Source: Candidatus Hermodarchaeota archaeon
Lineage (GTDB): Archaea > Asgardarchaeota > Thorarchaeia > Thorarchaeales > Thorarchaeaceae
DNA length: 64,000 nt
Direction of reading: 5' to 3'
NCBI GenBank assembly: GCA_048885865.1
Contig: JBHLLF010000001.1
Coordinates: 141,676-205,675, forward strand
The translations under genes and the position numbers were made by a program. This document shows positions 39,348-45,246 of the stretch, in pieces. Under the pieces are notes generated by a model. The model ran no database searches, was not told where the DNA came from, and worked only from the letters and a program-made list of their open reading frames with translations. The stretch's first letter is position 1. Every line of letters starts with the position of its first letter.

Positions 39348-40787
39348 ATGCGAATAAAGACCCACCAAAAATTGTTGACAAGCGTTGGCGTCGATATTGG
39401 CACTTCTACATCACATGTCGTCTTTAGTAGCATCCTTCTTGAAAGAGACCTAAAGAGCCGTACTGAGAAGTTTGAAATCAAAGAGAAGAAAGTGCTTCAC
39501 AAGGGGCCCATTCATTTCACGCCCTTCTCTGACCCAGACACAATCGATTTTGAGGCACTCAGGAATCTCATTCTTGCAGACTACGCTGATGCTGGTTTCG
39601 AGCTTACTCAAATCGATACAGGTGCTGTGATTATCACAGGAGAAACCGCTCGCAAAGAGAACGCTGAGGAAATCGTGGAAGCTCTCGCAGGTGAAACTGG
39701 CAAATTCGTGGCAGCAACAGCAGGCCCCAATTTTGAGAGTGTCTTGGCGGCTCACGGTGCTGGAGCTGTGATGAAGTCGGCAGAAACGGGTCTGACTATT
39801 CTGTCATGCGATATCGGGGGTGGCTCATCTAACATTGCAGTCTGCAGAGATGGGAAGGTAGTCGCGACCGCAGCGATTAATGTCGGTGGTCGTTTGGTAG
39901 CTACAGATAACGCAGGTACTATCATCCGACTCGAAGAAACCGGAAAGCGAATTGGCGAAAAGGTCGGCCTTACTCTGAGGCTTGGCCAGTATCTTGACGA
40001 ACCATCAAAGCGATTGCTAGCACAAGCACTCGCAGATGCCCTAATTGAAGCATTGGAAGGGAAGCAGGAGTCAGAGATCACAAAGTCGCTCATGATGACG
40101 ACACCTCTTGACTTCAAGGACAAAGTGGATGAAGTCATGTTTTCAGGCGGCGTTGCGGAGTTTATCTATGGGCTAGAAATCAATGAGTATAATGATTTAG
40201 GACGATTGCTGGCTCAATCAATTATGAAATTGGTCGATAAATACGAGATTCCCATGGCGGAGCCAGAACACCGCATCCGCGCAACTGTAATTGGAGCAGG
40301 CCAATCAAGTCTTCAAGTGAGCGGGTCAACAACCTTTCTTTCCTCAGGGCTAGAATATCCTCTGAGGAATCTGCCCGTCATCACTCCCCATGTACCGAAA
40401 GGAAAGACATCAATGGAGAAAGTGCGAGATGCAATCCAGAATGCTCTCAAGAGATTTGATATCAAGGAAGGCATTGACCCTCTTATTCTTGCTTTTGAGG
40501 ATGCAGTTCGTCCATCCTATGAGAGCCTCACCGAATTTGCCAAGGGTATTGTAGCTGGTTTGCCTAGAACCACTGCTAATGGTTCGCCTATTTTGATGTG
40601 CTTTGACACAGATATAGGCAATAGTGTCGGAAATGTGATTAAGCGCGAGACTGGGGTGACCAATGAGATTCTTTCCATTGATGAGATATCTCTGCATGAA
40701 GGTGATTTCGTCGACATTGGCGAGCCTATAATCGAAAACGTCGTGGTTCCAGTAGTCGTGAAGACACTGGTCTTCGAGGAACGATAG
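39348..40787 (+). CDS. eutA: EutA-like reactivating factor (ASKHA/actin-fold ATPase)
   Basis: SVGVDIGTSTS, GAVIITGETARKENA, DIGGGSSN, IRATVIGAG, VVPVVVKTL. Confidence 0.9.
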   Translation: MRIKTHQKLLTSVGVDIGTSTSHVVFSSILLERDLKSRTEKFEIKEKKVLHKGPIHFTPFSDPDTIDFEALRNLILADYADAGFELTQIDTGAVIITGETARKENAEEIVEALAGETGKFVAATAGPNFESVLAAHGAGAVMKSAETGLTILSCDIGGGSSNIAVCRDGKVVATAAINVGGRLVATDNAGTIIRLEETGKRIGEKVGLTLRLGQYLDEPSKRLLAQALADALIEALEGKQESEITKSLMMTTPLDFKDKVDEVMFSGGVAEFIYGLEINEYNDLGRLLAQSIMKLVDKYEIPMAEPEHRIRATVIGAGQSSLQVSGSTTFLSSGLEYPLRNLPVITPHVPKGKTSMEKVRDAIQNALKRFDIKEGIDPLILAFEDAVRPSYESLTEFAKGIVAGLPRTTANGSPILMCFDTDIGNSVGNVIKRETGVTNEILSIDEISLHEGDFVDIGEPIIENVVVPVVVKTLVFEER

Positions 40788-43227: not shown

Positions 43228-43725
43228 CTAATATCTGCGATCACGGTCGCGATCTCGATATCCGCCGCCGCCACGTCTATCTCTGTAGCCGCCACCACCG
43301 CGACGGTCTCTGTAATCTCCGCCGCCGCCACGTCCGCCATATCTTCTTGGTGGACGTTCATGCTCTTCGGCTGAGACGTCGTTTTCCTCGTTGACTTCTT
43401 CAATTGGCTCCTCAGCTTCATTGATAATACCATATCTTCCAATATTGAGCCGAAGATTCCTTTGAAATAGTCCAGTATATCCGTTTTCAAGCTTGTAGGT
43501 CTTGCCAACCTCTAGTGCGTCAATGGAGTCATCCCACAGAGGCATTACAACTGTGCCACTGGCATCTCCAATGACAATATCTGCAACACGATGGGTTTCG
43601 CCATCATGCCTTGAGGTCACCTCGCGAGCCTCGCCCTTTGATAGGACCTTGAACGAGATTGTTAGGTTCTTCATACGGGGTTTAAGGTCTGAGATGATAG
43701 CAAGAACAGGTTCCGGTTCGCTCAT
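43228..43725 (-). CDS. Single OB-fold SSB-like nucleic acid-binding protein with RGG/RD tail (paralogue 1)
   Basis: VIGDASGTV..LWD, NGYTGLFQRNLRLNIGRYG; tail YRDRRGGGG repeats. Confidence 0.88.
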   Translation of the reverse strand: MSEPEPVLAIISDLKPRMKNLTISFKVLSKGEAREVTSRHDGETHRVADIVIGDASGTVVMPLWDDSIDALEVGKTYKLENGYTGLFQRNLRLNIGRYGIINEAEEPIEEVNEENDVSAEEHERPPRRYGGRGGGGDYRDRRGGGGYRDRRGGGGYRDRDRDRRY

Positions 43726-44366: not shown

Positions 44367-44537
44367 TGTCTATCACTGTTGAAAACATACCGAGTCAGAA
44401 TATAACACATAGCCACTATCTAGGCTCACAATTAAGGTTCACATATTGTGGACTCAAGTAGTGACTTCTCGTTTTCGTTCAACGCAATTCTGCAGGCGCG
44501 TCAATTCTTCATTCACAATATTTATATAATGTAATAC

Positions 44538-44550
44538 GTAATACTATTAC
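44538..44550. promoter_or_regulatory. Palindromic operator GTAATA-C-TATTAC (unit 1)
   Basis: Perfect palindrome about 10 bp downstream of TTTATATA (44521). Confidence 0.75.
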
Positions 44551-44603
44551 ATGAAAGACTGAAATCCGCTGGTATTCGGCGGTACAGTCGCGAGGTGAGA
44601 TGG

Positions 44604-44747
44604 ATGACTAACAAGAAGAATCGCAAATGGTGGAATCGGATTGCCAGGCGTATTGCCAAGCGCTACAAGAATGAATCGATCTATCGCGATTACACGGGAA
44701 GGTCTAACTGGCCTAGTGTGGCGTTTTGGTCAAGTCTGTACAAGTGA
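44604..44747 (+). CDS. Small basic peptide A, 47 aa: MTNKKNRKWWNRIARRIAKRYKNESIYRDYTGRSNWPSVAFWSSLYK
   Basis: GAGGTGA SD 5 nt upstream; own promoter; homologous to peptide B with synonymous changes. Confidence 0.75.
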   Translation: MTNKKNRKWWNRIARRIAKRYKNESIYRDYTGRSNWPSVAFWSSLYK

Positions 44748-44803
44748 TATGACGTTGAATGACAGTCATAATACAATTCCACAATACTTATATAGAATAA
44801 CAT

Positions 44804-44816
44804 GTAATACTATTAC
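44804..44816. promoter_or_regulatory. Palindromic operator GTAATA-C-TATTAC (unit 2)
   Basis: Identical to unit 1, same spacing from TTATATA (44788). Confidence 0.75.
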
Positions 44817-44872
44817 GTGGAATACTGAAAGCGCGCGGGAAACCGGGCGGTGACAGCCACGAGGTGAGATGA

Positions 44873-44977
44873 ATGACAGACAGGATAAATCGCAATCAGT
44901 CAAAGAGGATTGGCAGGCGAATTGGAAGGCGCTTCACGCATGAGTCGATTTACTACGACTACTTTGCGGAGGCATAG
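44873..44977 (+). CDS. Small basic peptide B, 34 aa: MTDRINRNQSKRIGRRIGRRFTHESIYYDYFAEA
   Basis: GAGGTGA SD 5 nt upstream; 16 of the first 30 residues identical to peptide A. Confidence 0.75.
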   Translation: MTDRINRNQSKRIGRRIGRRFTHESIYYDYFAEA

Positions 44978-45037
44978 ATGATGGCCTCTTTCGTGCGGAT
45001 GATCATGTCTGGACAAGCAAAAAGGAAGTAGGTCATT

Positions 45038-45136
45038 ATGGCAATAGAAAAGAATGAGAACAGGAAGAAGGCAATTGGAAAGCAGATCCAGAGTACCAGA
45101 GCCATCGCATGGGCTTACCAGTATAAGAGTGGGTAG
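45038..45136 (+). CDS. Small basic peptide C, 32 aa: MAIEKNENRKKAIGKQIQSTRAIAWAYQYKSG
   Basis: Ungapped match to A/B at N6, I13, G/A14, K/R15, I17, Y27; weak SD AGGTCA; T-rich tract follows. Confidence 0.5.
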   Translation: MAIEKNENRKKAIGKQIQSTRAIAWAYQYKSG

Positions 45137-45246
45137 TTGAGATGGCTCTTTTGGAGCTCTTTCTTCTTAGCGCTTCTAGTGAGCCCGTGCTTGTGTTCTT
45201 TGGGGCATGAGCACTCTCACACCTTTACTGTTTTTAGAAACTCGAC

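Follow-up and report, generated by a model that had tools for sequence, protein, structure and literature searches.

Small acid-soluble spore proteins (alpha/beta SASP) and Coxiella ScvA are small, lineage-specific, nucleic-acid-binding proteins of a dormancy program, and SASPs form dispersed multigene families. Small basic ribosome-associated peptides, such as eL41 and SRA/bS22, have 20 to 45 amino acids, are Lys/Arg rich and helical, and are often missed by annotation, but they are single copy and nearly all basic. Other short peptides are encoded by the type I toxin mRNAs hok and aapA/IsoA, short multicopy mRNAs with a 5'-3' long-distance helix over the initiation region (PMC6733600), or serve as dispersed RiPP precursors of the PqqA/MftA type, with 20 to 40 amino acids and a conserved C-terminal Tyr.

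In this study, we closely examined three tiny genes (here named A, B, and C) in a stretch of 64,000 nucleotides (here called the window; contig JBHLLF010000001.1, positions 141,676 to 205,675) from a genome of the Thorarchaeota, an Asgard lineage related to eukaryotes. A first-pass annotation, made from the sequence alone, had described them as a tandem array of cationic micropeptide genes with dedicated promoters and a shared amphipathic RI(A/G)RRI core and had proposed a regulated family of RNA/ribosome-binding, nucleoid-condensing, or membrane-active microproteins. We found that the genes are real and belong to an unannotated family of about 30-residue, positively charged peptides that is far larger than that annotation suggested.

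Results

The locus lies between a winged-helix membrane protein gene and a convergent TrmO-like gene and has the following features (positions in the window).

44514 to 44528 (+): BRE-like element and TATA box of unit A, inferred from sequence and position; the same layout precedes orthologous operons in two genera
44538 to 44550 (no strand): palindromic operator M1 (GTAATA-c-TATTAC) between TATA and the predicted start, probable site of an autoregulated ribbon-helix-helix (RHH) repressor
44557 to 44589 (+): 5' leader hairpin of A (z -1.8); a hairpin occupies this position in orthologues
44592 to 44598 (+): Shine-Dalgarno (SD) of A
44604 to 44747 (+): ORF A, 47 amino acids, pep0-type peptide with a genus-specific 14-residue tail
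44780 to 44794 (+): BRE-like element and TATA box of unit B
44804 to 44816 (no strand): second M1 operator
44816 to 44861 (+): 5' leader hairpin of B (z -4.3)
44861 to 44867 (+): SD of B, which can pair with the 3' TCTCAC at 45215 to 45220
44873 to 44977 (+): ORF B, 34 amino acids, tandem duplicate of A truncated by a frameshift, with the same truncation in one relative
44978 to 45039 (+): decayed A-type tail, now a predicted hairpin (z -2.3) that covers the SD and start of C
45038 to 45136 (+): ORF C, 32 amino acids, member of the family-wide C-type peptides (basic arm plus S-T-x-A-I-x-x-A-Y helix)
45187 to 45236 (+): 3' hairpin (GTGCT...AGCAC) and T-rich run, the probable terminator; the same hairpin ends the other arrays, where it overlaps the end of the acidic pep3 gene that is missing here

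The observation made in the first-pass annotation is confirmed. The net charges of A, B, and C are +11, +4, and +5, 16 of the first 30 residues of A and B are identical, and exactly 7 of those codons differ synonymously. The promoter units repeat at 266 nt and the ORF units at 269 nt (74 to 82% identity), and the TATA box, the 13-bp palindrome, the leader hairpin, the GAGGTGA SD, and the 5-nt spacer are as described. However, three corrections apply. Only A and B have promoters, while C is the second gene of B's transcript. The gapless register proposed for C is not the conserved one, since I13 occurs in 3/76, G/A14 in 4/76, and the RI(A/G)RRI motif in 0/76 C-type relatives, and profile comparison aligns I23/Y27 of C with I26/Y30 of A and B (offset +3). 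Furthermore, B is an A-type gene whose tail was lost by a frameshift, and the remains of this tail lie at 44978 to 45030.

To verify that the ORFs reflect more than chance, we compared the locus with relatives and estimated selection; conserved ORFs with dN/dS below 1 had been named beforehand as support. Four same-genus genomes keep the locus in the same place: one has A, B, and C, two have a single A/B-type gene followed by C, and one has A and a decayed C, a pseudogene. This indicates that A and B arose by a recent tandem duplication, after which B lost its tail. Pooled Nei-Gojobori dN/dS was 0.50 for A/B codons 2 to 30, 0.35 for the A tail, and 0.16 for C, as well as 0.17 to 0.67 for peptides of another array. 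The pairs are not independent and the sites are few, but the direction is consistent. Also, the conserved Ser, Thr, Ala, Ala, and Tyr positions use all synonymous codons, including both Ser boxes, across 78 copies. A fourth ORF at 45142 to 45210 was rejected, as its dN/dS was about 3 (on very few sites) and it overlaps the 3' hairpins.

We next analyzed how widely the peptides occur. A profile of C-like peptides found 7 genes in 5 loci of this genome, the array studied here being one of five, and matches in 82 of 85 Thorarchaeota genomes, with 1 to 13 copies each. Only 2 of 314 other Asgard genomes matched, and both hits are internal stretches of long genes. A search of 1.84 billion representative proteins returned 56 hits, all but one (a repetitive 416-residue frame) carrying the same short motif, with taxonomy checked for only a few. 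Apparent database fusions of pep2 and pep3 look like stop-as-Gln gene-calling artifacts. The consensus is an M-A-L-A-K start, a basic arm of variable sequence, and then K-x-(I/Q/L)-S-T-(D/E/R/K)-A-(I/L)-x-(Y/H/F)-A-Y-x-Y-R-R, with a mean net charge of +6. C is modeled as a helix (mean pLDDT, 77). The conserved element is a C-terminal Ser-Thr-capped helix, S-T-x-A-(I/L)-x-x-A-Y, whereas the RI(A/G)RRI stretch was seen only in five genomes of one genus.

The usual operon is [pep0]-pep1-pep2-[pep3], i.e., two to four translationally coupled genes, in which terminal Arg codons and the stop spell the next SD and a GTGCTC/GAGCAC hairpin plus T-run ends the unit. A and B are this genus's version of the leading pep0 peptide, whose core, T-(L/H)-(E/D)-S-(L/I)-Y-x-(D/E)-Y, aligns with the C core at offset +3 (hhalign E value, 0.044; shuffle P of about 0.04 each). 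This link is weak by score, but intermediates exist and the operon position is shared. In one genome (here G024; loci L028, L041, and L043 to L045), near-identical three-peptide M2 cassettes lie at five unlinked sites, with identity starting at the operator and ending at the 3' hairpin, which suggests concerted evolution or recent spread.

Searches of the peptides and their profiles against Pfam, NCBIfam, PHROGs, and PDB gave no significant match, with viruses covered only by PHROGs, and Rfam gave no match for the locus. The ESM Atlas returned no usable hit, and a search of RNA runs returned no run with the sequence, which is no evidence either way. Homologues are named "hypothetical" in their source records, the NCBI names of A's homologues identify the lineage as Thorarchaeota, and literature searches, incomplete in coverage, found no description of the family.

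Three operator types precede the arrays. M1, the palindrome of this locus, has five exact copies in the genome, two of the loci lying beside RHH-type genes, and occurs with a TATA box in 37/86 family genomes against one hit for the reversed-pattern control. It marks the promoter of an RHH-type gene (weak RHH_1 and AbmR hits) in most loci inspected and also precedes ARPP-1, a sulfhydrogenase-beta-like gene (recognized by eye only), a probable small RNA, and pep0+C operons in a second genus. The probable small noncoding RNAs (L117, L118, and L120 to L122; contig C1 of this genome, here G000, 94480 to 94586, minus strand) appear to be driven by the M1 promoter divergent from the RHH gene, which lies at G000:C1:94820-95152, and several share a CGGTCCC core. 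At L136, L138, and L140, a leaderless 33- to 35-amino-acid peptide with a core resembling pep0 lies under M1 ahead of a secreted protein. A 56-amino-acid ORF with an SD lies under an M1 palindrome just downstream of an L40e-like gene end (L021:1395-1562; G000:C13:70394-70561) and has no family match.

M2 (GTCACA-n3-TGTGAC) precedes most arrays and, in all six genomes examined, a 415- to 435-amino-acid protein that scores above the Bactofilin cutoff in this genome (417 amino acids; L175:1091-2341, contig G000:C6). The literature search found no paper with both Thorarchaeota and bactofilin. M3 (GGTTTG-n6-CAAACC) goes with a divergent ArsR/PadR-like regulator, seen at 14 loci. The assignment of regulators to operators is inferred from position. 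An M3/M2 promoter is also followed by a long, apparently structured leader ahead of an MFS transporter (L176:1845-2010, i.e., G000:C2:99345-99510; L149; L164).

Among the recurrent neighbors of 52 loci with 1.5-kb flanks, no conserved adjacent enzyme, transporter, or protease was found, a convergent methyltransferase in 7 loci being the only recurrent enzyme of that sort. A recurrent neighbor is an uncharacterized Zn-ribbon (CxxC...CxxH) two-helix membrane protein (L018:2705-3298 and L177:1473-2060), present in 75/86 family genomes. Both paralogues of this genome lie next to arrays, and 21 of the 30 top homologues have an array within 1.5 kb, in convergent and divergent layouts across genera. 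Fold searches of this protein matched only its helical hairpin, and complex prediction with a C-type peptide gave no evidence either way. Elsewhere in the window, we found a single-OB SSB-like protein with a repeated Gly/Arg/Asp-rich C-terminal tail (43228 to 43725, minus strand) and a EutA-family protein (39348 to 40787; E value, 2.7e-139), with no other ethanolamine utilization gene evident among its neighbors.

At the RNA level, transcripts fold better than shuffles in most loci, and leader and 3' hairpins persist even where pep3 is lost. In the M1 operons of the second genus, RNAalifold predicts a helix between the first start codon and the 3' untranslated region (95.7% paired, 4 pairs with double changes, 0/500 shuffles), although relatedness inflates such covariation counts. 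In the lineage of this window, only a 6-bp SD-to-3' contact remains, which is not statistically significant, and the other operon types show no conserved equivalent. SECIS, riboswitch, and k-turn readings of the leader were dropped, as there was no Rfam hit and the loop is not conserved as a k-turn.

To assess membrane activity, we calculated Kyte-Doolittle hydropathy. The best 15-residue value was -0.66 to 0.17 for A, B, and C, with a family mean of 0.05 and a maximum of 0.95, i.e., there is no hydrophobic or transmembrane segment. A and B have a strongly amphipathic stretch (hydrophobic moment of about 1.0), which is genus specific.

Discussion

The interpretation given in the first-pass annotation is partly supported. 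A real, selected microprotein family, with regulation read from shared operators, no described family, and no adjacent modifying enzyme, is supported, and RNA/ribosome or nucleoid binding is plausible as an inference. In contrast, the RI(A/G)RRI stretch as functional center, promoters for all three genes, and a membrane-lytic role are not supported, and neither the scale of the family nor the family-wide regulon had been seen.

Our analysis establishes that the ORFs are under purifying selection, multicopy, and translationally coupled and that they share operators with a small set of other genes. From layout and conservation, we infer that the RHH protein represses this copy through the palindrome between TATA and start, that two other regulators drive the other copies, and that mRNA folding restrains translation. 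The weakest inference concerns function: each peptide would use its Lys/Arg-rich arm of variable sequence to bind nucleic acid and its short Ser-Thr-capped, Ala/Tyr-faced helix to dock on RNA/DNA or on other copies. It would then coat or park ribosomes or chromatin, in the way spore SASPs or stationary-phase ribosome-associated peptides do, without being related to them, being made in high dosage when a stress or growth-phase program is switched on. We tentatively favor such dosage-amplified nucleic-acid-binding microproteins, at less than even confidence. Many copies, a variable basic arm, and a fixed capped helix fit an abundant cytoplasmic nucleic-acid binder made on cue. The copy number and the near-identical cassettes fit dosage selection, and the lack of a hydrophobic segment and of a conserved adjacent enzyme, transporter, or protease fits an unmodified cytoplasmic effector. 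However, binding, expression, and the inducing condition rest on inference alone, and the conserved half is the weakly charged helix rather than the basic arm. Moreover, the companion pep3 and some pep0 peptides are neutral or acidic, which suits a protein partner at least as well, no similarity to any solved ribosomal or chromatin protein was found, and C is a pseudogene in one close relative.

The main rival, which we consider unlikely but possible, is that the peptides are regulatory docking peptides whose helix binds a lineage-specific protein (the Zn-ribbon membrane protein, the bactofilin, or one of the regulators), with the paralogous operons feeding three signals into the same target. 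Conservation concentrated in a short helix face, the adjacency of the Zn-ribbon and ArsR-like genes, and the shared M2 operator of the bactofilin-like gene speak for it. Yet adjacency can be inherited synteny from one old duplication, the array of this window has none of these neighbors, and up to 13 copies and apparent concerted evolution suit a bulk structural role better.

A RiPP precursor role, with an aromatic-x-Tyr-x-Tyr C terminus cross-linked by a stand-alone maturase, is doubtful. The short ORFs lie in tandem and have alternating aromatic residues at core positions 4, 6, and 8, and a PqqD/RRE domain was found in 54/76 family genomes, nearly always single copy and fused to a radical SAM-SPASM enzyme in those examined. 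However, no enzyme of this kind lies next to any of the 52 arrays, and the RRE enzyme also occurs in Asgard families lacking the peptides. It lies at G000:C2:33752-35170 and has a likelier substrate, a divergent 722- to 729-amino-acid secreted or membrane protein ending in Cys/His repeats (C-H-S-A units; both genes together at G000:C2:33752-37912, L257; also L279 to L282), and its orthologues in other Asgard families are coupled to proteins ending in Cys-Ala repeats. This looks like a RiPP-type modification of a large protein tail, widespread in Asgard. No YcaO was found in 5 genomes, and the ExxxY pattern of PqqA is not conserved (acidic residue in 43/75).

Type I toxin-like or membrane-active peptides that arrest growth and are held silent by mRNA folding are similarly improbable. 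The covarying fold-back of the second genus, the amphipathic stretch of A and B, and multicopy dispersal speak for this reading. In contrast, there is no transmembrane segment, the start-codon fold-back is absent in the lineage of this window and not conserved in the other operon types, the amphipathic stretch is genus specific, no antisense RNA gene was identified (without an exhaustive search or a dedicated one for an antisense promoter), and near-universal, conserved, polycistronic presence is unlike the patchy distribution we would expect of antagonistic toxins. That the structured RNA is the functional molecule and the ORFs are incidental is very unlikely, given dN/dS below 1, full synonymous-codon turnover at the conserved residues, an SD or coupled start before the ORFs, and no Rfam match.

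A more far-reaching possibility, which we regard as remote, is a lineage-wide differentiation or dormancy program in which three transcription factors drive multicopy micropeptide effectors together with a bactofilin cytoskeleton. The peptides would be free-standing modules of a basic arm and an alpha3-like helix that dock on histone polymers or on a lineage-specific membrane receptor, a peptide-based control layer not described in archaea and relevant to how tail-like chromatin control arose near the root of eukaryotes.

A gene family that is nearly universal and highly multicopy in one Asgard lineage, yet largely invisible to annotation, is probably central to that lineage's physiology. It comes with three readable operator motifs and their target genes, one of few regulon maps for uncultured Asgard archaea, and the peptides are short enough to be synthesized, so that their function is accessible without a culture. 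It bears on small-protein control of ribosomes, chromatin, or cell shape in Asgard archaea, an open question.

As a sequence family and operon layout, the peptides are undescribed in the databases and literature searched. Their resemblance to the histone-fold L2-alpha3 segment and the histone H3 tail is visual (basic residues, a hydrophobic residue, a Ser/Thr cap, and then a helix with Ala-Tyr in the same register as the Thorarchaeota histone) and not significant (hhalign P of 0.019 post hoc, probability of 2.5%; PSSM rank 1343 of 7273; no histone in PDB at an E value of ≤10), and the conserved histone Asp is Ala here. Besides the single canonical histone of this genome (G000:C47:6086-6268), there is a second, alpha3-truncated histone of about 55 to 60 amino acids (G000:C45:9093-9293; L220 to L225), below the Pfam threshold here and seen in six other Thorarchaeota. 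Likenesses to RHH helix B and PIP boxes were seen by eye only and put down to a generic helix-capping pattern, and a proteasome HbYX motif was dismissed because the C termini vary by 0 to 3 residues.

Compared with PqqA/MftA-type precursors, the peptides share the multicopy nature and the conserved C-terminal Tyr, but the invariant Glu is absent, the arm is strongly basic, and there is no linked maturase. Compared with hok and aapA/IsoA, the second genus alone has a predicted 5'-3' helix over the initiation region, while the family lacks a hydrophobic toxin helix and is polycistronic. Like eL41 and SRA/bS22, the peptides are small, Lys/Arg rich, predicted to be helical, and missed by annotation, but they have a conserved Ala/Tyr helix, up to 13 copies, and, as inferred, dedicated regulons, and showed no PDB match. 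Like the SASPs, they are small and lineage specific and form a dispersed multigene family. However, A, B, and C gave no SASP Pfam hit, and the peptides (27 to 48 amino acids) are shorter, archaeal, and encoded in translationally coupled polycistrons. Under the explanation we tentatively favor, they would work like known small basic stress proteins, by analogy only and without belonging to them.
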